The notes under the pieces were generated by a model that worked only from the letters and a program-made list of their open reading frames with translations, did no database searches and was not told where the DNA came from. Positions 6,089-52,353 of a stretch of DNA of 64,000 nt are shown piece after piece (the stretch's first letter is position 1; every line of letters starts with the position of its first letter). This DNA comes from Escherichia phage vB_EcoM_KAW1E185. The stretch lies in the sequence record NC_054922.1, one strand, 5' to 3'. The translations under genes were made by a program, and so were the position numbers.

Positions 6089-6175
6089 GTTGTTTTCTGT
6101 ATCAGTAGTTGATATTGATATAGTACCATAATCAACTACTGATGTATATAGTTTTATGAAAAAAAAATTTAAACT

Positions 6176-16284: not shown

Positions 16285-16355
16285 TATTTTTCCTTTCAAT
16301 TCATGGGTTAGTAGATTAATTATACAATAAATATATAAAGCAATAAGGAGGACAT

Positions 16356-16556
16356 ATGGTACAAAAATTAATGGCACTTGTTGATGCCATAAAAGGTAAT
16401 AAAAAACGTATAGCTTTTACTATTTCTGCTATGGTAGGAATTTTACTCTGGAACTTTATTTTATCACCTGTTGCAATTGCACATGGTATTAATATTCCAG
16501 TAGTTACTCTTGATACATTCGTAGATTTAGCATTTGCTTTAGTTGGGTTAATTTAA
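16356..16556 (+). CDS. candidate plus-strand small hydrophobic protein (66 aa)
   Basis: ATG preceded by AAGGAGGA Shine-Dalgarno; product has two hydrophobic segments; sits between gene 56 and the gene 61 stop. Confidence 0.3.
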   Translation: MVQKLMALVDAIKGNKKRIAFTISAMVGILLWNFILSPVAIAHGINIPVVTLDTFVDLAFALVGLI

Positions 16557-17581
16557 GTCTTAGCATATTTAGATAGCCGCATTTTAGCCATCAACCCCTG
16601 GGCAATATTATTTTTCATATATTCCATAATTTGTTCAGGGGTTGCACCTTCCTTTCTAATCATATCATTAACATCTTTTGATTTCCAGGGAGATTTATCC
16701 CAAAACATAACCCTTTCTCCTGCATCAACTAATTTAGTCATTCGCTTGATAGTGTCAGGGTGACGAGGTTCATTATCTAAAACCCACACTCGTCTATCTT
16801 TAAATGGAACAACTTCTAGGTCTAATTGACCACCCGTAATAGCTATACCATTTTCAATAAAAAGCGAATCTATAGGTCCTTCTAGAACATATACATCACC
16901 ATCTTTAACTCGTTCGACTCCATATATTTTTGTTGCCTCAGGATAAGCTTTAATGGTGATATATTTTTGAGGAGCATCTTTCTTTAATGCACGTCCTTGA
17001 AAAGACTCAGCTTTTCCGTTAGCATTATAAATTGGAATAACAAGACGAGGCTCAGAAATTTCCTTTTTGTATGTTCCTGGTGCTATGCTATTAACTAATT
17101 TAGGCCATTCGGTTGTAAACCAAAGATATTTCCATTTATCCTTTGGAATACAACGAGCTTTTACATATTTTATAATTGGATGGTCTTCCGCCAGTTTATC
17201 TAATCTAACACATGACGGAAGAGATTTAATTATTTTCTTCTCAGGTCGCTTAGGAAGTTCTTTAGGTTTTTCTACTGGACGACTTTTACCTTTTTCTTTT
17301 CTTATTTCAAAGATATACTCACGATATAAATCAGGTTCAAACTCCTTTAAATATATTCCGATTGGTGCATGATAGTTACAGTTATAACAATGAATATTTC
17401 CTTCATTATTATCACCATAATACCATCCACGGGCTTTATTTTGGTCGGTTTTTGAATCTCCGCAAACAGGGCATCTAAACCGCAATTTAAAAGTTGAACT
17501 ATTATTTACTTGTGTGAATTTAGGTAAATGAGCTAATGCACGATACGCAAACTCATTATCAATCCAAGGTATTGATGACAT
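16553..17581 (-). CDS. 61: DNA primase (gene 61)
   Basis: 342 aa as in T4 gp61; zinc ribbon CPVCGD...CYNC; TOPRIM EGPIDSLF. Confidence 0.9.
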   Translation of the reverse strand: MSSIPWIDNEFAYRALAHLPKFTQVNNSSTFKLRFRCPVCGDSKTDQNKARGWYYGDNNEGNIHCYNCNYHAPIGIYLKEFEPDLYREYIFEIRKEKGKSRPVEKPKELPKRPEKKIIKSLPSCVRLDKLAEDHPIIKYVKARCIPKDKWKYLWFTTEWPKLVNSIAPGTYKKEISEPRLVIPIYNANGKAESFQGRALKKDAPQKYITIKAYPEATKIYGVERVKDGDVYVLEGPIDSLFIENGIAITGGQLDLEVVPFKDRRVWVLDNEPRHPDTIKRMTKLVDAGERVMFWDKSPWKSKDVNDMIRKEGATPEQIMEYMKNNIAQGLMAKMRLSKYAKT

Positions 17582-17583
17582 TT

Positions 17584-17748
17584 TTACTCTTCTTTTTCTT
17601 TAGATTCCTCTTTCTTCTTTTTAGGAATCTGTTCAGGACCTTTATTTACTACAGCACCTGACGTTGTTCCAGTAGAGATATTTTCAGGATTACCACCTGA
17701 ATCTCCAGCGACCATATCTTCTTTAATAAATTCTTTATATGTTTTCAT
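17584..17748 (-). CDS. small protein (54 aa) with capsid-targeting-sequence-like N-terminus; 61.1 position
   Basis: own translation MKTYKEFIKEDMVAGDSGGNPENISTGTTSGAVVNKGPEQIPKKKKEESKEKEE; resembles the internal-protein CTS MKTYQEFIAE. Confidence 0.4.
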   Translation of the reverse strand: MKTYKEFIKEDMVAGDSGGNPENISTGTTSGAVVNKGPEQIPKKKKEESKEKEE

Positions 17749-17749
17749 A

Positions 17750-17794
17750 TTAACCTCTATTCATAAAAGCATTAAAAATTTGGTCATCAATAGA
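17750..17794. repeat. 45-bp direct repeat, copy A (3' end of the 118-aa gene)
   Basis: ttaacctctattcataaaagcattaaaaatttggtcatcaataga; one mismatch to copy B. Confidence 0.8.
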
Positions 17795-18106
17795 TGGCGC
17801 AGTAATATTTTCTGCATCATTTAGCAAATCATTAATTTCATCAGATAGCATAACACATGTACCTTTATTTCCTGTAATTGTTACTGCACAATTACGAACG
17901 TTTTCTTTATCAAATTTTAGGTTAATATTTTCGTAGTGAAAATCCTTTAATGCTGAATATATTTTTAAAATGAAATTGTCTTTTACTACAATAAACCCAA
18001 CCTCACTATTAAAACGCGGTTCATGGAAACTGTAATAAACCTTTTCATCTATAAAATCGTATGAAATTTTTTCCATTTTTAAATATGAAAATTCAGAACT
18101 ATACAT
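17750..18106 (-). CDS. hypothetical protein (118 aa) sharing its C-terminus with the adjacent 208-aa protein
   Basis: ends SIDDQIFNAFMNRG. Confidence 0.45.
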   Translation of the reverse strand: MYSSEFSYLKMEKISYDFIDEKVYYSFHEPRFNSEVGFIVVKDNFILKIYSALKDFHYENINLKFDKENVRNCAVTITGNKGTCVMLSDEINDLLNDAENITAPSIDDQIFNAFMNRG

Positions 18107-18107
18107 A

Positions 18108-18152
18108 TTAATCTCTATTCATAAAAGCATTAAAAATTTGGTCATCAATAGA
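18108..18152. repeat. 45-bp direct repeat, copy B (3' end of the 208-aa gene)
   Basis: ttaatctctattcataaaagcattaaaaatttggtcatcaataga. Confidence 0.8.
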
Positions 18153-18734
18153 AACATTTGCTTTAGACTGTTTTTCTGATGGTAATTCATATCCACATAT
18201 TACAATTTTGTGATCAATATCAAAATACACAGAAGCAATATGATTAATGTTGTTTTCAGTAAAGTCTAAATCAACATCAATATCTTTTTGACCACAGCCC
18301 AAAGGATAAATAATGCGAGTAATTCGATTATCTTTAACAAATATTCCACCGACATACTCTGTGCTGCGTTTAAAGTCTACACGCCGACGAAATGAAAAAT
18401 ATTCAGGCTCTCTATGAGCTCGGCTCATAGGACACAACGAGTAACTAGAATAAGAGATGTCAAATCCTACGCCTTCGATATGAGCCAAAGTGTCATGATT
18501 AAACCAATTATAATCGTACGCCAAATCCATTAGATTATAATATGTAAAAGGCACCGGATTAACATCATTAGTCACAAGCATGTAATTAGCAACTGCTATA
18601 ATTTCATTGTTTTTAACGAATACAAACCGTGATTGATGCGAATGACCTGGACCCGCGTTTTCACGATTAATGATATAACACTGGGCACCTTTATATTTGT
18701 ATGTATCTTTGCACTTGTGCATTTGATAAAGCAT
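18108..18734 (-). CDS. hypothetical protein (208 aa), 61.2 position
   Basis: ends SIDDQIFNAFMNRD. Confidence 0.5.
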   Translation of the reverse strand: MLYQMHKCKDTYKYKGAQCYIINRENAGPGHSHQSRFVFVKNNEIIAVANYMLVTNDVNPVPFTYYNLMDLAYDYNWFNHDTLAHIEGVGFDISYSSYSLCPMSRAHREPEYFSFRRRVDFKRSTEYVGGIFVKDNRITRIIYPLGCGQKDIDVDLDFTENNINHIASVYFDIDHKIVICGYELPSEKQSKANVSIDDQIFNAFMNRD

Positions 18735-19027
18735 TATTCACCTATCACTTCAGCGATGATATTTTTATTATTAAAGTTTTTATCGCAATACAGAACATAA
18801 TTATACTGCATTACACCACCAGACTTAAGCTGTTTTTGCACTTCGGCTTTCATTTCAGGACGATCGCGCTCAACGATATTCATAATATCTGCTTCAATTT
18901 GAGTTTCAACCTCAGTCTGATCCGCAGTCATAGACCATTCACACAAATCTTTATCATATCCTGCCATAGCAGGCTGAGCAGCACAAGAAGCCAAAGTAAA
19001 AATTGTAGCAAAGATAAATTTTTTCAT
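18734..19027 (-). CDS. sp: spackle periplasmic protein (Sp)
   Basis: 97 aa with N-terminal signal peptide; size and position match T4 sp (61.3). Confidence 0.7.
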   Translation of the reverse strand: MKKFIFATIFTLASCAAQPAMAGYDKDLCEWSMTADQTEVETQIEADIMNIVERDRPEMKAEVQKQLKSGGVMQYNYVLYCDKNFNNKNIIAEVIGE

Positions 19028-19055
19028 GATAATCTCCTCAGTAGTTTATGTTTAT

Positions 19056-19085
19056 ATAGTATCTCAATTTCCAATAAAAGTAAAC
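19056..19085 (-). promoter_or_regulatory. T4-type early promoter
   Basis: gtaaac 19080-19085; -10 TACTAT; 18-bp spacer; upstream of sp. Confidence 0.55.
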
Positions 19086-19087
19086 AG

Positions 19088-19345
19088 TTATTTTAAAATT
19101 TCTGCGTAATCACATGTTACAAACTGTTTCTCTAGCTTAACGATCTTACGAAAATACCTTTTACACTGACGAATCTGCCTCTTCGTAGGGCGAACAGCAA
19201 ACTTAATAAATTCCACTCGACCAAATGGAGGGTTTTCTTCTGCTGGAATATCTAACACCAATTCCCACGTATCTGCAATAAGTGCTTTGAATTGCGTATT
19301 TTTCCTGACGTTATACGGAGTAGGTTTAAATAAAACAATATGCAT
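19088..19345 (-). CDS. hypothetical protein (about 85 aa), 61.4 position
   Basis: ORF track 19088..19387; internal ATG just after the dmd stop is the likelier start. Confidence 0.4.
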   Translation of the reverse strand: MHIVLFKPTPYNVRKNTQFKALIADTWELVLDIPAEENPPFGRVEFIKFAVRPTKRQIRQCKRYFRKIVKLEKQFVTCDYAEILK

Positions 19346-19346
19346 A

Positions 19347-19529
19347 TTATCCTCGGCAATCCACTTCACACACTTTCTTGTCATCAATGAAAGCTTTAAC
19401 TAATGCTTTATTAACTTCAGCATATTGAGTAGTAGCCCATTGAACATCATCTTTCATCATTGTGATTTCTTTAGTAAACATGCTTTCATTCTTAAACCAC
19501 CCCATAAAAACTACCTTTACCAATTCCAT
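19347..19529 (-). CDS. dmd: Dmd (discriminator of mRNA degradation; antitoxin against RnlA/LsoA)
   Basis: 60-aa ORF MELVKVVFMGWFKNESMF..., matches T4 Dmd as recalled. Confidence 0.75.
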   Translation of the reverse strand: MELVKVVFMGWFKNESMFTKEITMMKDDVQWATTQYAEVNKALVKAFIDDKKVCEVDCRG

Positions 19530-19558: not shown

Positions 19559-19588
19559 ACTATACCATAGTCTTGTCAGCTTGTAAAC
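19559..19588 (-). promoter_or_regulatory. T4-type early promoter
   Basis: gtaaac 19583-19588; -10 TATAGT; 18-bp spacer; upstream of dmd. Confidence 0.55.
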
Positions 19589-21015
19589 TAAAATTTTAAT
19601 TCATTTGCCAAAGCATCTAACTGAGCTCGAGTGGATTCATTTCTTTGATAACGATTCTGCTCAGCCTGAATCTGTTGTGAACCTGCTACTTCACTCACTT
19701 CAGTTGGAGTAGAATCTTGTTCAATTTCTACCCATTTCTGATTTCCCTTTTGAACACCCATCAAAAACTTATTCCATTTGTTCTTATCACCATATCGTGA
19801 TTTGATTTGCTTAATGAGTTGTTGTTCAGCAGCTGCTAGCTCCTCGGTTTCAATGACCGCAAGCATAAAATCGGCTGTTGCTGGAAGACCAGCAGATTCT
19901 GCAATATCGCTCATGTTAACATCAGAAGAATCCCAAGCTTGTTTACCAACCTGTGCTGCAGTCCAAAGAACAGTTTCGGTTTCAACAGCAAGAGCACGCA
20001 ATTCCTCTGCAATAGCTTTAACAGTTGTGTAACTATTTTCTGAATAAACTCTGATGCGACAAGATTTACAAATACCTAGATAGTCGACAATAATGATTGT
20101 TGGAACAAAATTCTTTTTGAGCTTCAATTCATTCAAGAGAGACCTGAATGTGTTAGCATCTGCTCCGCCAGTAGGATACTGTTTAACGATTAAACGGCCG
20201 AGAGTAGATTTCTCACGCCATTTTTCCATTTTTCCTTTATACTCAGCGTAAGAAATATGTCCATCATCAATGTCATCAAGAGAAACATCGAGCATGTTAG
20301 CATCAATACGTTTAGCACAGACTTCTTCTGCCATTTCCATGGAGATATAAAGAACGTTATGACCAAGCTGCAAATAATCTGCTGCTAATGAACACAGACC
20401 TAATGACTTACCAACGTTAACGCCAGCCATTAAAACGTTCAGTGTTCCAGTCTCAGCTCCGCCTTTAGTAATTTTGTTTAGAATTCTGAGTTTAAATGGA
20501 ACCTTACGAGCTTTATTCATATAAGATAGCCAACGCGCTTCATAGTCATCCATCCAATCATGACCAACGTAGCTATCAAATGAAATTGATAATGCTTGGC
20601 GCATGATGTCAGGAATAGCACCTACATCTGGCATTTTCTTATTTCGTTTTTCCGGAGGAAGCTCAGCATTAGTTTGAATTTCGATTATTTTAGACGTAGC
20701 ATTAAACATCGCCCTTTGCTGAACATATTTTTCTGTTTCTTTTATTAACCAACTGTGGTCTTCCGGAGAATCAGCCAGTTTTGAAATAAGTGTTTTTACA
20801 CCAGAATATTCTGTTTCAGTAAATGAACTATTTTCTAATGCAACATTTAACGCATTAATAGATGGAACGCTATGATACTCATTGACATGAGATTTAATTA
20901 ATTTGAATGTATTTTTAGCTGGACCACTTTCAAAATATTCTGAATCCATATATGGCCAAACTTTTGAAAAATAAGTTTGATCAAATATGAGATGAGAAAG
21001 AATAATTTCTACCAC
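19588..21015 (-). CDS. 41: replicative DNA helicase (gene 41, DnaB-like)
   Basis: 475 aa as in T4 gp41; Walker A GVNVGKS. Confidence 0.9.
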   Translation of the reverse strand: MVEIILSHLIFDQTYFSKVWPYMDSEYFESGPAKNTFKLIKSHVNEYHSVPSINALNVALENSSFTETEYSGVKTLISKLADSPEDHSWLIKETEKYVQQRAMFNATSKIIEIQTNAELPPEKRNKKMPDVGAIPDIMRQALSISFDSYVGHDWMDDYEARWLSYMNKARKVPFKLRILNKITKGGAETGTLNVLMAGVNVGKSLGLCSLAADYLQLGHNVLYISMEMAEEVCAKRIDANMLDVSLDDIDDGHISYAEYKGKMEKWREKSTLGRLIVKQYPTGGADANTFRSLLNELKLKKNFVPTIIIVDYLGICKSCRIRVYSENSYTTVKAIAEELRALAVETETVLWTAAQVGKQAWDSSDVNMSDIAESAGLPATADFMLAVIETEELAAAEQQLIKQIKSRYGDKNKWNKFLMGVQKGNQKWVEIEQDSTPTEVSEVAGSQQIQAEQNRYQRNESTRAQLDALANELKF

Positions 21016-25252: not shown

Positions 25253-25277
25253 ATCTGTATCAGTAGTTGATAGTTGT

Positions 25278-25307
25278 ATAGTACCATGGAAGAACAGTCT
25301 TGTAAAC
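25278..25307 (-). promoter_or_regulatory. T4-type early promoter
   Basis: gtaaac 25302-25307; -10 TACTAT; 18-bp spacer. Confidence 0.5.
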
Positions 25308-25393
25308 AGTTTTGTGAAAATTTTTTAGGGAATTCTAAATGTCCAGAATCATCTGTTTTTCATAAGTATAGATTTATATTACTTGTATGAAAA

Positions 25394-25423: not shown

Positions 25424-28120
25424 TCAGCCAAACAGGAAGTCTAACGAAGCTTTTTCTTCATAGTCCATACCAGCCGATTCACACATGCCTGCAAGCGGTT
25501 TAACAAACGATTTTTGGAACAAAGTTGAGTAGTCAATCCAAGACAGTACGTCAGAACGAATTTCTTTTGGAAGTTCTGTACCCGACGGCCAAGCAATGCA
25601 TTTGTCACCAAATGGATTTCCTTCACGCAATGGAAGAACCATTACTTTATTTCCATCCAAAATTGGAGCTACACCTAAACCGCTAACAGCTCGACGATAA
25701 GTTAGCACACCACGAATATGGAACGGACATTTAAATCCTGGCCAACCTTTATCATCATATTTCGCTATATCGTTCGCAGTTTTTACTTCAGCAATAACTT
25801 TATAGTCAAGTTGACGATATTCTTTCTCGAAGTTCTTGTAATATTCTTGGACAGACTCTTCACCTTCCTGAAGAATACGACGAATACTTTCTTCGAGAGC
25901 TTCTTGGACCGCTTTAGGCGTTGAACTCTGCTGAGTTTCCATACCCATGATTTTTAGATGCGGTTCAGCAAATCGCTTATCTTCCATATCATATACGTTC
26001 AGAGCATAACGCTTTTTCGCTTTCCAAAATCCACCAACGCCCTTTGAACCAAGTGGAGGGCAAGAAATAGCTTCACGGTCCATATGCATCAGATGCTCGC
26101 GGTTATTCATATAATCACATAACTCACGATATGCAACATCAATCATAGGTTCCATCTTTTTCTTACCGAACTGATTCATGAATTCAACTAAATCGTTCTG
26201 CTCTTTGAATCGGTCAAGACCAACTTTTTCAATAACTTTATCTACACAAACATATACCGAATCAGTATCACCTGCTGCGATGAAATCTTCGCCATTAGTT
26301 CCACATACTTTATTCAGATACTCATTAATTTTACGAGCAATCCACTGAATACCGACTTGACCAAAAATTGTAATAGCAGTAGCATTTCGCAAATCATAGT
26401 AGCGGAAATGAATATTACCAAGAGCACCGTAAAGGCTGTTAATAAGAATTTTACGGTTCAGCTGATTTGTATTAGCAAGTGTAGCCGCTTTTTCACATTC
26501 TTCAATCAAACTATTGAGAACAGATTCAGTATAATTCGATAGTTCATTTAAGAAATCATCACTGAACTTAACATATCGTTCAACTTCCGGTTTAGTTGAA
26601 CAAGACCCTGCGCCTTTCATAATAATCTTTTTAATAGCTTCGGCATTCATTTCTTCAGCGAACATTTTCTTTTTCCAATCTTTACGCTGGAAAAATACTT
26701 TAGCGATTTCCTTTGGAATGATACCTTCTTGATGCTTATCATACATCCATCCGTTCGGAGAACAAGAATATTCATCACTCGGTTTAGGAGCTGTTCCTGC
26801 GATATATTCATGAATTGGATGAACTTTAAACTGACCACGAATAGTCTCAGGACTAATGTTAACCTGACGAATAATGCTCGGATACAGAGACGTCAAGTCA
26901 AAACTCATAATATATCGACGAGCAATTGGTTTAGGTTCAAATACAAATGCACCCGGAAAACTTTGTTTAACGTGCGAACCTTGTTGAGGAATAACCTTGT
27001 GTTCACCTTTCAATGAGTTAAAAATAATAGCATCCCAAGTTTTAATAGGACTCATTACACCAGAAAAAGGCATTTTAGCGTAATAAGACATACTTAAAAC
27101 TAGATCGATAAACCCGCGAATTTTATCAATTGCTTGAACTGATTCTACGTCAATGATGTTATAACTAATGTATCGTTGATGATTAGTCTCACGAAGTTTA
27201 TTAATAGGACCGTCGTATGGTAATTTACCTTTTTTGGTTTCATGTTGAGCAACTGATTCCAAAGAGAATGACGGCAAATTAGTAAAAGCAAATTTCTTGT
27301 ACAAATCTAAATAATCAAGAATAGATACACCATCAATAGAATAAATTTCTTTGCTGCCGTACATATTTTGAATTAGTTTAGATTTTACTCGACCGATTGG
27401 AGAGAAGCGTTTCATACTACGTTCACCGAGAACCATTTTAACGCGATTCATGATATACGGAACGTCAAATCCCTCAATATTCCAACCAGTAAAAATAGCA
27501 GGTCGTTTCTGTTCCCAGAGATTGATATATTCCATGAGCATATCACGCTCATTATCGAATGGCATATAAATTACTCGGTCAAGAATTTCTTGAGGAACTT
27601 CATCACCACCTTCACAGTCAAGCTTAGCAGCTAACTTTGCATCCCATTTTGATACTGAACCATACATTGAATTCAAAAGGTCGAAAACATAAAAACGATC
27701 ATCAATTGAATCGTAATGAGTGATAGCATCAATTTCATATTCAGCTTTCATTGGGTCAGGAAATTTATCACCAGTAACCTCAATGTCACAGTTAGCTACA
27801 CGAACAAATTTTCGGTCATAAACAATTTCTGAACCGTATGTATCACTGATATAAGCGAGTTTAAAATCGTTCATACCGAGAGCTTCGAGACCGATGTCTT
27901 CCATTCGTTTCATCCAATCTCGAGCATCTTTCATTGATGGAAATTTTTGAGGAGCGCAGTTTTTACCATAGATGTCTTTGTACTTTGACTCTTCCTTACA
28001 ATGCCTAAACATAGTTGGAAGATATTCTACTTCACGAGTACGTTCCTTTCCATTTTCATCAATATAACGTTCAACAATATTATTTCCGACTGTTTCAATA
28101 GAGATATAAAATTCTTTCAT
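25424..28120 (-). CDS. 43: DNA polymerase (gene 43, family B)
   Basis: 898 aa as in T4 gp43; exonuclease and polymerase motifs (YGDTDS-like GDTDSVY). Confidence 0.95.
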   Translation of the reverse strand: MKEFYISIETVGNNIVERYIDENGKERTREVEYLPTMFRHCKEESKYKDIYGKNCAPQKFPSMKDARDWMKRMEDIGLEALGMNDFKLAYISDTYGSEIVYDRKFVRVANCDIEVTGDKFPDPMKAEYEIDAITHYDSIDDRFYVFDLLNSMYGSVSKWDAKLAAKLDCEGGDEVPQEILDRVIYMPFDNERDMLMEYINLWEQKRPAIFTGWNIEGFDVPYIMNRVKMVLGERSMKRFSPIGRVKSKLIQNMYGSKEIYSIDGVSILDYLDLYKKFAFTNLPSFSLESVAQHETKKGKLPYDGPINKLRETNHQRYISYNIIDVESVQAIDKIRGFIDLVLSMSYYAKMPFSGVMSPIKTWDAIIFNSLKGEHKVIPQQGSHVKQSFPGAFVFEPKPIARRYIMSFDLTSLYPSIIRQVNISPETIRGQFKVHPIHEYIAGTAPKPSDEYSCSPNGWMYDKHQEGIIPKEIAKVFFQRKDWKKKMFAEEMNAEAIKKIIMKGAGSCSTKPEVERYVKFSDDFLNELSNYTESVLNSLIEECEKAATLANTNQLNRKILINSLYGALGNIHFRYYDLRNATAITIFGQVGIQWIARKINEYLNKVCGTNGEDFIAAGDTDSVYVCVDKVIEKVGLDRFKEQNDLVEFMNQFGKKKMEPMIDVAYRELCDYMNNREHLMHMDREAISCPPLGSKGVGGFWKAKKRYALNVYDMEDKRFAEPHLKIMGMETQQSSTPKAVQEALEESIRRILQEGEESVQEYYKNFEKEYRQLDYKVIAEVKTANDIAKYDDKGWPGFKCPFHIRGVLTYRRAVSGLGVAPILDGNKVMVLPLREGNPFGDKCIAWPSGTELPKEIRSDVLSWIDYSTLFQKSFVKPLAGMCESAGMDYEEKASLDFLFG

Positions 28121-37037: not shown

Positions 37038-37256
37038 TTATTTCTCTAATATAAAATAAAAATCATCATCTGTTAAATGATACCTGTAATTTAATTCTAC
37101 ACCATTAGATTTAAAAGCGGTATCATACGGATTTTCTGGATCAATATCAATGTCAAGAGCTAAAACTTCCCTGAGATACATTTTAAGTAAATAGGGAATA
37201 GCTTCAACTTCAGGTATTTCTTCCAAGAATCCGGAGAGGTTAATCGTTAGCCTCAT
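37038..37256 (-). CDS. hypothetical protein (72 aa)
   Basis: ORF. Confidence 0.4.
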
Positions 37257-37803
37257 ATAAAAAATCCAAACTAGGAGAATCGTCTACAACACTTTTCTTT
37301 TCAGCCCCCGGTGTTCTATAGGTTGATTCTTCGTAATGCGTCATTTTATCGTAGATGTCTTGAATAAAAGTTTCATCTACTAACGCAACCATATCGTCGT
37401 CACGACTGTCATAGACATTGTGAACGAAGTAACTATATTTCTTTGCAACTTCCTTACGTTCTTTTTTAATACGCTGGACGAATGCATTAAAACAAGCTTG
37501 AGTTATATACGCATGTGGGTTTTTATATTTCGTTTCATCAAAATTATGAAGCCCCTTAATAGAAGCTTCTATACCATCTGCAATCATTTCTTGTTTCCAA
37601 GACTGGGTGTATCCTGAAAAGTTGAAACGTTTAGATAAGCCTTCTGCAATAAGCATAATGGCTAATCCAATAGTATCATTTTGACGAACTACTTTATTTG
37701 GGTCTTTATTATTTGCTAATTCTGTTTTCCAATCAATAATAGCTTGTAAAAGCTCTTTATTGTTTACGTAATTATATTTAGGCTTAGTTTCTGACATTTT
37801 CAC
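37240..37803 (-). CDS. 55: late sigma factor gp55
   Basis: 187 aa (T4 gp55 185 aa); position between agt and the nrd genes. Confidence 0.85.
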
Positions 37804-39540: not shown

Positions 39541-39570
39541 ATCAATTCCTCAAAGGTAATTCATATGTTA

Positions 39571-39600
39571 ATAATACCATAGTTTGAACTTGTTGTAAAC
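39571..39600 (-). promoter_or_regulatory. T4-type early promoter
   Basis: gtaaac 39595-39600; -10 TATTAT; 18-bp spacer. Confidence 0.5.
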
Positions 39601-39698
39601 AACTTTGTGAAAAATATTTTAGGGAATGATAAGAAAGGAACGATAGCTTAGAATGGTAATATACAGAATGTGAGAAAGAAAGGCCCAGAGGGCCCGTC

Positions 39699-50563: not shown

Positions 50564-50591
50564 TTTCTGTTCCTCCGTAGTTGATAGTTGT

Positions 50592-50621
50592 ATAATACCA
50601 CAGAGGAACAGTCTTGTAAAC
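50592..50621 (-). promoter_or_regulatory. T4-type early promoter
   Basis: gtaaac 50616-50621; -10 TATTAT; 18-bp spacer. Confidence 0.5.
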
Positions 50622-50623
50622 AA

Positions 50624-50926
50624 CTAAAAGAAACTTCTTTCACAATTTTTTCCACTGAACCAAGCGCTCACTGCTTTCTTAGTCTCAGGAGCAGTGTTAT
50701 CCATAAACCATTCAAAGGCAGCCTTTTTATGATTCTGGAGGGCTTCTCGGGCTTTAATCTGCTCACGGTCTATTAACACTAACATATGAGCCTTTCTTGT
50801 CACCAAGGGCTTCTTATGATTTTTTGAATACTCCCAATCATTTGTCCAACGCATTGTCGTTGCGAACTGAAATACTGCTTCTTTAATTTTAGTTTCGTAA
50901 ATTTCACGAGCCTTTGAGTATAACAT
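50624..50926 (-). CDS. hypothetical protein (about 100 aa)
   Basis: ORF track 50624..50938; GGAGG lies inside the first codons so a later ATG is the likelier start. Confidence 0.4.
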   Translation of the reverse strand: MLYSKAREIYETKIKEAVFQFATTMRWTNDWEYSKNHKKPLVTRKAHMLVLIDREQIKAREALQNHKKAAFEWFMDNTAPETKKAVSAWFSGKNCERSFF

Positions 50927-52254: not shown

Positions 52255-52292
52255 TTTGTATCTCCAATTTACTCATTTGTTTTGATAGTTGT

Positions 52293-52322
52293 ATAATACC
52301 ATAAAGCTTTATGCTTGTAAAC
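52293..52322 (-). promoter_or_regulatory. T4-type early promoter
   Basis: gtaaac 52317-52322; -10 TATTAT; 18-bp spacer. Confidence 0.5.
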
Positions 52323-52353
52323 AGTTTTGTGAAAAAATTTTTGAAATAAAAAA

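Follow-up and report, generated by a model that had tools for sequence, protein, structure and literature searches.

Within a 64,000-nucleotide stretch of the genome of Escherichia phage vB_EcoM_KAW1E185 (NC_054922.1; hereafter the window), which derives from a Tequatrovirus (T4-like phage), two adjacent genes on the minus strand end in nearly the same DNA: adfA, a 208-aa gene at 18108-18734 that corresponds to T4 61.2, and a 118-aa gene immediately downstream of it at 17750-18106 (RB32ORF033c type, phrog_4122). A repeat search of the window delimits two copies of a direct repeat of 49 nt, identical at 48 of the 49 positions and spaced 358 nt from start to start; the repeat of 45 nt, with 44 matches, that was noticed in the original prediction is real and is contained within it. 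The proximal copy (18104..18152, minus strand) comprises the last 14 codons of adfA, the TAA stop codon, a single T and the ATG of the 118-aa gene, while the distal copy (17746..17794, minus strand) comprises the last 14 codons of the 118-aa gene, again with TAA and T, and the ATG of gene 61.1, so that the 118-aa gene is flanked by one copy at each end, as had been proposed. The two proteins have their C-terminal 13 amino acids in common, SIDDQIFNAFMNR, followed by D in the 208-aa protein and by G in the 118-aa protein; the sole mismatch between the copies lies in this last codon (GAT, Asp, proximal; GGT, Gly, distal). Only 3 of the 12 bases 5' of the Ser codon match between the two genes, which gives the repeat a sharp 5' edge. 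It is the sole repeat of at least 45 nt at 98% identity in the window, the remaining repeat families being 63-94% identical and early-promoter-like (TATAAT...GTAAAC on the listed strand).

The longer of the two genes, of 208 aa, is adfA and encodes anti-DarT factor A. Its product matches Pfam family PF23813 (Anti-DarT factor A) over positions 1-210 of 211 (E 1.9e-135; 449.4 bits, cut-off 27) and is 95% identical to T4 gp61.2. The suggestion, offered originally with low certainty, that the T4 61.2 position is an anti-DarT locus is correct, because published papers equate 61.2 with adfA and place it, with dmd and tifA (61.4), in a probable island of genes directed against toxin-antitoxin (TA) systems (PMC9391042, PMC11257639, PMC11825919). 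The gene lies between sp and 61.1, upstream of primase gene 61, in an order that matches T4 and RB32. An AlphaFold model of AdfA (pLDDT 65.9) contains a unit of beta-sheet plus helix twice, with a tethered C-terminal helix in addition, and the two halves of the protein match each other by hhalign when their tails are removed (E 3e-3). Alignment places a His at codon 165 of the window AdfA (NINHIAS), the equivalent of residue 164 in RB69 AdfA, where the substitution R164H lets the RB69 protein bind and neutralise DarT1 (PMC11825919). Alleles of adfA are mosaic in the 5' third of the gene (18550-18734 in the window), and at least two deeply diverged types exist in Tequatroviruses (73% amino acid identity between the window and Sf21); RB32 adfA departs from the window allele only in its first ~30 codons, and the PE37 and Sa45lw genes join a type-2 N-terminal part to a type-1 C-terminal part.

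Profile and structure comparisons identify the 118-aa gene as a one-domain paralogue of the C-terminal half of AdfA, a short form and not an AdfA orthologue. Its product exceeds the PF23813 cut-off (31.9 bits against 27; E 1.1e-7) over profile positions 113-211 only, its homologues P0001-P0005 are precomputed as PF23813, and it falls in phrog_4122 (E 2e-72). BLASTP aligns it with the neighbouring AdfA at 35% identity over 105 residues (E 2e-9); identity in the body is about 31% (24 of 78 aligned residues). By hhalign the tail-free 118-aa family matches the AdfA C-domain (E 1e-4, probability 58%) and, more weakly, the N-domain (E 5e-3). The AlphaFold model (pLDDT 82.8) shows a five-strand sheet followed by helix, strand and helix, that is, the AdfA unit once, with the secondary-structure elements in the same order as in the AdfA model, and Foldseek matches it to a 212-aa, AdfA-sized protein (E 1e-4). 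It is a single domain and does not have the two-domain architecture of the ~208-aa AdfA. Since dN/dS between alleles is 0.06-0.32, the 118-aa gene is functional, coding and under purifying selection. Its product may be an anti-toxin factor of different specificity. The residue equivalent to position 164, which sits on the first helix of the domain, varies in the short-paralogue family: it is Asn here (codon 72, 17891-17893), His in the Sf21 type and Asp in distant members.

The short gene occurs in about 297 of the about 540 records that match the region. It was annotated in RB32 in 2006 as 'similar to gp61.2' and is present in databases and in the Pfam family, and appears to have been overlooked experimentally. 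Phage T2, described in a 2025 paper as lacking an adfA homologue (PMC11825919), carries a 118-aa AdfA-family gene directly after sp (1489-1857 in PV648363.1, locus L003; L-numbers here and below denote loci). Searches of Pfam and PHROGs found no mobility domain (transposase, HNH or GIY-YIG endonuclease, integrase) in the 358-bp unit, whose sole ORF is the AdfA-like 118-aa gene; a cassette of the transposon, homing-endonuclease or integrase type, with target-site duplication, was rejected for this lack of a mobility gene.

A conserved C-terminal tail across the family

The tail recurs throughout the family. Twenty aligned members all carry DDQIFNAFM without change, even those whose bodies share only 24-31% identity with AdfA, and the stretch immediately preceding it differs from member to member in both length and sequence. 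Using gene 61.1 as an unbiased anchor, we fetched 31 loci across the Tevenvirinae, and most of the anchored loci that hold an sp-like gene have, directly after sp, one or more genes that terminate in the tail motif or a looser form of it. The tail reads SVDDQIFNAFMNRG in the 216-aa AdfA of RB69-like phages, DDQIFNAFM[NK]R[GD] in the 145-aa and 117-122-aa genes of Gaprivervirus-like phages, DSQIFNYWMKK in 126-aa genes, DD[DE]IFNAWMKR in 111-aa genes and DDQIFNFWIGHV in a 138-aa gene; the looser forms DSQIFNYWM, DDDIFNAWM and DDQIFNFWI belong to more distant Tevenvirinae. The tail is the invariant C-terminal motif of the family, and not primarily the scar of an insertion or duplication.

The family itself is confined to T4-like phages. 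An exhaustive HMMER search of 1.84 billion proteins returned 10 cluster representatives, with no bacterial or functionally annotated relatives among the results, and word-indexed protein searches retrieved close relatives only (5 and 16 proteins). A degenerate pattern for the tail DNA occurred in only 16 IMG/VR contigs, 15 of which are contigs where the scan with 61.1 located this locus, and within the window the motif was found nowhere beyond the two genes.

In the AlphaFold models the tail forms a short helix (residues 106-115 of the 118-aa protein and 196-205 of AdfA; pLDDT about 55-65), preceded in both by a linker with pLDDT below 50, from which the tail appears tethered and not packed. 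It may be a helix that the whole family uses to bind a partner or to oligomerise. The vector pUT18 fuses T18 to the C-terminus of its insert. If this orientation holds for the pUT18-adfA constructs in a published two-hybrid strain list (PMC11257639), a free AdfA C-terminus is not needed for DarT1 binding. As far as could be found, the invariance of the tail and its nature as a tethered helix have gone unremarked in the literature. Two clamp-binding C-termini encoded in the window, those of gp43 (25424-28120; SLDFLFG) and gp55 (37240-37797), loosely resemble SIDDQIFNAFM in having S-I/L-D and then Phe residues; we considered the tail as a sliding-clamp-binding motif and found this likeness too weak to claim.

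A third tail-bearing family, of 145 aa, occupies the adfA position in Gaprivervirus-like phages (1362-1799 in L005; 2158-2595 in L011). In size it corresponds to phrog_8539, whose match to the 118-aa protein was limited to the tail, and the member in EAWsc9 is annotated as 'serine/threonine protein kinase'. With the tail removed, hhalign gave no sequence homology for the 145-aa family (E about 0.1), and the Foldseek match to the 118-aa model (E 2.3e-4, 16% identity) supports a structural relationship only.

Tail DNA, haplotypes and proposed recombination joints

All 13 shared tail codons are identical in the two genes, including the rare GAC (21%) and AGA (14%), an agreement with a probability of about 4e-4 under the codon usage of the window; the aligned gene bodies are identical at 104 of 234 nt and use the same codon at 9 of 24 shared residues. 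In a small sample of tails, paralogous copies within a lineage differ at 3.1 of 39 nt, and orthologous copies, Tequatrovirus versus Gaprivervirus-like, at 6.9 of 39 nt. The bodies show the reverse, with 44% nucleotide identity between paralogues and 58-61% between orthologues. Both Tequatrovirus tails have AAT-AGA where both Gaprivervirus-like tails have AAG/AAA-CGA, and the second Asp codon is GAT in both tails of the Sf21 lineage and GAC in both tails of the window lineage. The proximal tail of L014 holds the distal-copy states CAG and TTC, unlike its orthologues in L012 and L005. Because of the 13 identical codons and this grouping of tails by lineage, conservation of the peptide together with codon bias is insufficient as an account, and the tails bear a sequence signature that points to concerted evolution by gene conversion or recombination. 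As in known cases of concerted evolution of tandem paralogues, part of a diverged pair is near-identical and groups by genome and not by copy; unlike those cases, the tract here is very short, at about 45 nt, and falls on a strongly selected peptide, which makes selection and conversion hard to separate.

Three haplotypes are found. The first, in T4, PE37 and loci L006, L007 and L010, has adfA alone, running into 61.1 with a single repeat copy; the second, in the window, RB32, Sf21, Lutter, JK38 and Sa45lw, has adfA followed by the 118-aa gene; and the third, in T2, RB14, L008 and many others, has the 118-aa gene alone. The comparison with related phages suggested in the original prediction thus separates T4, without the gene and with one copy, from RB32, Sf21 and others, in which the gene stands between two copies, and genomes with adfA only keep exactly one copy, as an empty site should. 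This copy has the distal-type end AGAGGT in all five adfA-only genomes examined, on two adfA backgrounds, and the proximal copies of the two-gene genomes end in AAAGGT or AGAGAT (7 of 7). The AGAGGT pattern is a prediction of deletion through a crossover within the repeat; in-register insertion gives the same pattern. It had been anticipated that recombination between the repeats would delete the gene and leave a chimeric ORF: the empty site of T4 agrees with the deletion, but the supposed chimera is a normal adfA whose last residue has changed from D to G, as in T4. In T2, a 14-nt remnant of the repeat end (TAGAGGTTAGTATG) follows the stop codon of sp and suggests that adfA was deleted there.

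Alleles of the two genes are also combined differently among phages. Lutter, JK38 and Sa45lw join an adfA that is largely of the Sf21 type (about 140 informative sites) to a 118-aa gene of the window type (55 of 57 sites), with the switch between 18112 and 18103, at the 3' edge or last bases of the proximal repeat; the divergence between Sf21 and the window stops at 17783, inside the distal repeat. In the Gaprivervirus EAWsc9 and the IMG/VR contigs L012 and L014, too, a tail-bearing gene is followed by an orthologue with 46% identity. This two-gene layout shows that the arrangement is old and predates the split of the genera.

The surrounding island

The neighbouring genes lie on the minus strand as well. 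Upstream of the pair are gene 41 (19588-21015); dmd (19347-19529) and tifA (61.4; 19088-19387), both known anti-toxin genes, recognised from their ORFs and from the annotation of T4 and RB32 (PMC9391042); and the conserved sp (spackle; 18734-19027), the upstream anchor of the locus. Downstream, after the distal repeat, are the conserved gene 61.1 (54 aa, 17584-17748), the downstream anchor of the module, and primase gene 61 (16553-17581). Between gene 56 and gene 61 (16285-16552), where T4 has dam, this gene is absent, and in its place is a 66-aa membrane-like ORF on the plus strand (16356-16556), the RB32 equivalent of which, in the same position, is annotated as similar to RB69ORF029w. In L008, an IMG/VR contig of a Tequatrovirus, 61.4 and sp are separated by an additional 84-aa ORF (2027-2281), another sign of a hyperplastic island. 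The direct-repeat families of 32-67 nt that read TATAAT...GTAAAC on the plus strand resemble T4 early promoters of minus-strand genes; they include copies at 19038-19104, 6102-6168, 25260-25326, 39553-39619, 50574-50640 and 52275-52341, one such repeat lying just upstream of sp.

Weighing the explanations and their meaning

We consider it likely that the tail is an end-piece of the AdfA family, homogenised by gene conversion or recombination, which bounds a module of presence/absence and allele exchange in the anti-toxin island. On this reading each member of the family carries one or two beta-sheet/helix domains that evolve fast, then a flexible linker that varies, and last the invariant amphipathic C-terminal helix (DDQIFNAFM); its gene ends in a conserved coupling junction, GAGG-T-TAA-T-ATG, so that two members placed side by side automatically create a short direct repeat. 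In Tequatroviruses, gene conversion or homologous recombination between the copies would, in addition, hold their DNA near-identical. These 49 bp of identity, 358 bp apart, would be a substrate for the very active recombination system of T4, and exchange between the copies would remove the 118-aa gene and leave an intact adfA; the 118-aa gene may likewise be added or swapped by exchanges of this kind, with the tails acting as joints at which diverged adfA and 118-aa alleles may be reassorted between phages.

Known systems offer partial parallels. The PeSL (promoter-early stem-loop) modular shuffling cassettes of T4-type phages, reportedly described by Arbiol, Comeau and Krisch in 2010, likewise involve short conserved sequences at gene boundaries in hyperplastic regions and have been put forward as a means by which small accessory ORFs are gained, lost and exchanged; the repeat here differs from them in being a 3' coding end and not an intergenic early promoter with a stem-loop, and no sigma-70 or early-promoter match and no terminator-like hairpin was found at the repeats. 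The short-repeat deletions and amplifications of T4, at rII and at dmd-tifA (Srikant et al., eLife 2022), share with this locus the direct repeats that flank a dispensable segment, the very active recombination and, for the latter, the same anti-toxin island, and here a natural empty site with one copy exists in T4. Those events use fortuitous homologies of 2-10 bp, whereas the 49 bp of coding homology here are kept by selection on the peptide, which would make them a standing, reusable joint and not an accident. At this island itself, T4 is known to give rise readily to amplifications and deletions by way of much shorter homologies (PMC9391042).

Among the other accounts of the repeat, duplication of a gene's 3' end by an error of assembly or sequencing had nothing found in its favour and is excluded, because the junction from adfA to the 118-aa gene recurs in RB32, RB33, RB18, Sf21, Lutter and JK38 and in at least 156 independently sequenced phage records from many laboratories, and the same architecture in IMG/VR contigs; the figure of 156 is a lower bound, and the junction queries join pieces across a gap of 358 or 627 nt, so that their 80% coverage cannot separate the haplotypes. 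Many independent Tequatrovirus genomes (RB32, RB33, RB18, PhiZZ6 and others) match the 1.8-kb region end to end at 97%, and the ORF in between is conserved, evolves under purifying selection and has a confident fold model. A megablast with the 49-nt sequence (28-nt word) skips proximal copies with 2-3 mismatches, and scored Lutter as having it in one place. A recent cassette insertion, in which a foreign gene was newly placed behind adfA and the repeats are its footprint, is in keeping with the single copy and missing gene of T4, with the repeats that bound the gene and with the mosaic joints that coincide with them, and to this extent the footprint of duplication or cassette insertion originally proposed stands. 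The remainder of that proposal does not, as the tail is a family motif carried also by single-copy genes in many genera, so that insertion did not make it, the 118-aa gene is a diverged paralogue of adfA and not foreign, it is present in more than half of the related records, and the two-gene layout of EAWsc9, L012 and L014 is old; we regard a recent insertion as very improbable. Shared ancestry with purifying selection, a conserved peptide written in preferred codons with no part for conversion or recombination, fares somewhat better: the peptide is the same throughout the family, the majority of tail codons (ATT, TTT, AAT, GAT, CAA, GCT) are the commonest of the window, and tails from different genera are still 83-95% identical in DNA. 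It is nevertheless unlikely to be the whole explanation, given the identity of all 13 codons, the rare GAC and AGA included, the lineage-specific synonymous states found in both copies alike (AGA/CGA, and GAC/GAT at the second Asp codon), the clustering of tails by lineage and of bodies by paralogue, and the gene presence/absence and allele mosaics that break exactly at the repeats.

The identity might instead be kept because the repeat is a reused regulatory element, such as a MotA middle promoter, a Shine-Dalgarno or coupling signal, or a hairpin. Each copy contains a predicted MotA-type middle promoter (TGCTTT-N13-TAATAT; distal, 17747..17771; proximal, 18105..18129; both on the minus strand), found by pattern match, and the record of phage Lutter annotates a promoter on both tails. 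Both copies match TGCTTY-N12-14-TANNNT, a loose pattern that is enriched, with 24 matches in the window where 7.8 would be expected, chiefly on the strand of the early and middle genes, and GAGG stands in the last bases, 5 nt before the next ATG. Set against the T4 MotA middle promoter (Mot box (a/t)(a/t)(a/t)TGCTTtA, 11-13-bp spacer, TAtaAT), both read TAATGCTTTT-N12-TAATAT, with one mismatch in the Mot box. The element is, however, not conserved in other MotA-encoding genera: the GCTT core is lost in RB69-like (GCATTT) and Gaprivervirus-like (GCCTT) tails that keep the peptide. The -10 hexamer overlaps the ATG of the next gene, so that the transcript would start inside it; the predicted hairpin is neither significant (z -1.7 and -0.6) nor conserved in other genera; and a search of the literature found no transcription-start map or data for T4. 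A regulatory origin of the repeat is thus improbable, and regulation is possible as a secondary function, not as its cause.

Two observations on expression stand beside this. Transcription from the predicted promoter in the distal copy would begin within 61.1, and its product could supply primase gene 61. The last proximal codon is GAT in place of GGT in the window (18108-18113), L005 (1794-1799), L012 (2226-2231) and L014 (2232-2237), a change that turns the Shine-Dalgarno GAGG before the short gene into GAGA and that may, in this Tequatrovirus and in the Gaprivervirus-like two-gene genomes, be a parallel change lowering translation of the short gene.

Several points weigh against the reading of a homogenised, module-bounding tail. 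Part of the clustering of tails by lineage is an N/K amino acid change that could reflect co-adaptation and not conversion, and the tails of Lutter differ at 3 of 45 nt and are not near-identical within that genome. The T4-type arrangement could be ancestral, in which case two in-register crossovers would have brought in the 118-aa gene. A single ancestral exchange probably lies behind Lutter, JK38 and Sa45lw alike, which leaves few independent events to carry the mosaic evidence. Deletion of adfA in T4 gave no phenotype against DarTG1 (PMC11257639).

A bolder reading, which we advance tentatively and hold to be doubtful, gives the tail a dual role: as a peptide, it would be an adaptor helix that docks all AdfA-family proteins on one shared partner, perhaps a surface conserved among DarT-type toxins, perhaps a factor of the replisome or of the host; as DNA, it would be a portable, in-frame recombination joint. 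The variable domains would then supply toxin specificity, and the joint would allow T-even phages to add or remove anti-toxin specificity modules in register, to amplify them and to swap one for another. If this were true, the interval from sp to 61.1 would be a plug-and-play cassette array for counter-defence genes.

These results do not overturn current views; they refine a known system. Few phage proteins that inhibit a toxin-antitoxin defence system have been characterised, and AdfA is one of them; the interval around its gene has been termed an anti-TA island, in which the other genes are candidate anti-toxins. More than half of the sequenced T4-like coliphages, T2 included, carry a second, single-domain AdfA-like gene, which stands out as a candidate counter-defence factor aimed at a different target, and the most conserved part of the family is a tethered helix of 10 residues. 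On the reading that we favour, the locus would be a clean natural case of a selected peptide motif that doubles as recombination homology, and homology encoded in this way would make an accessory counter-defence gene easy to lose, regain and reassort.

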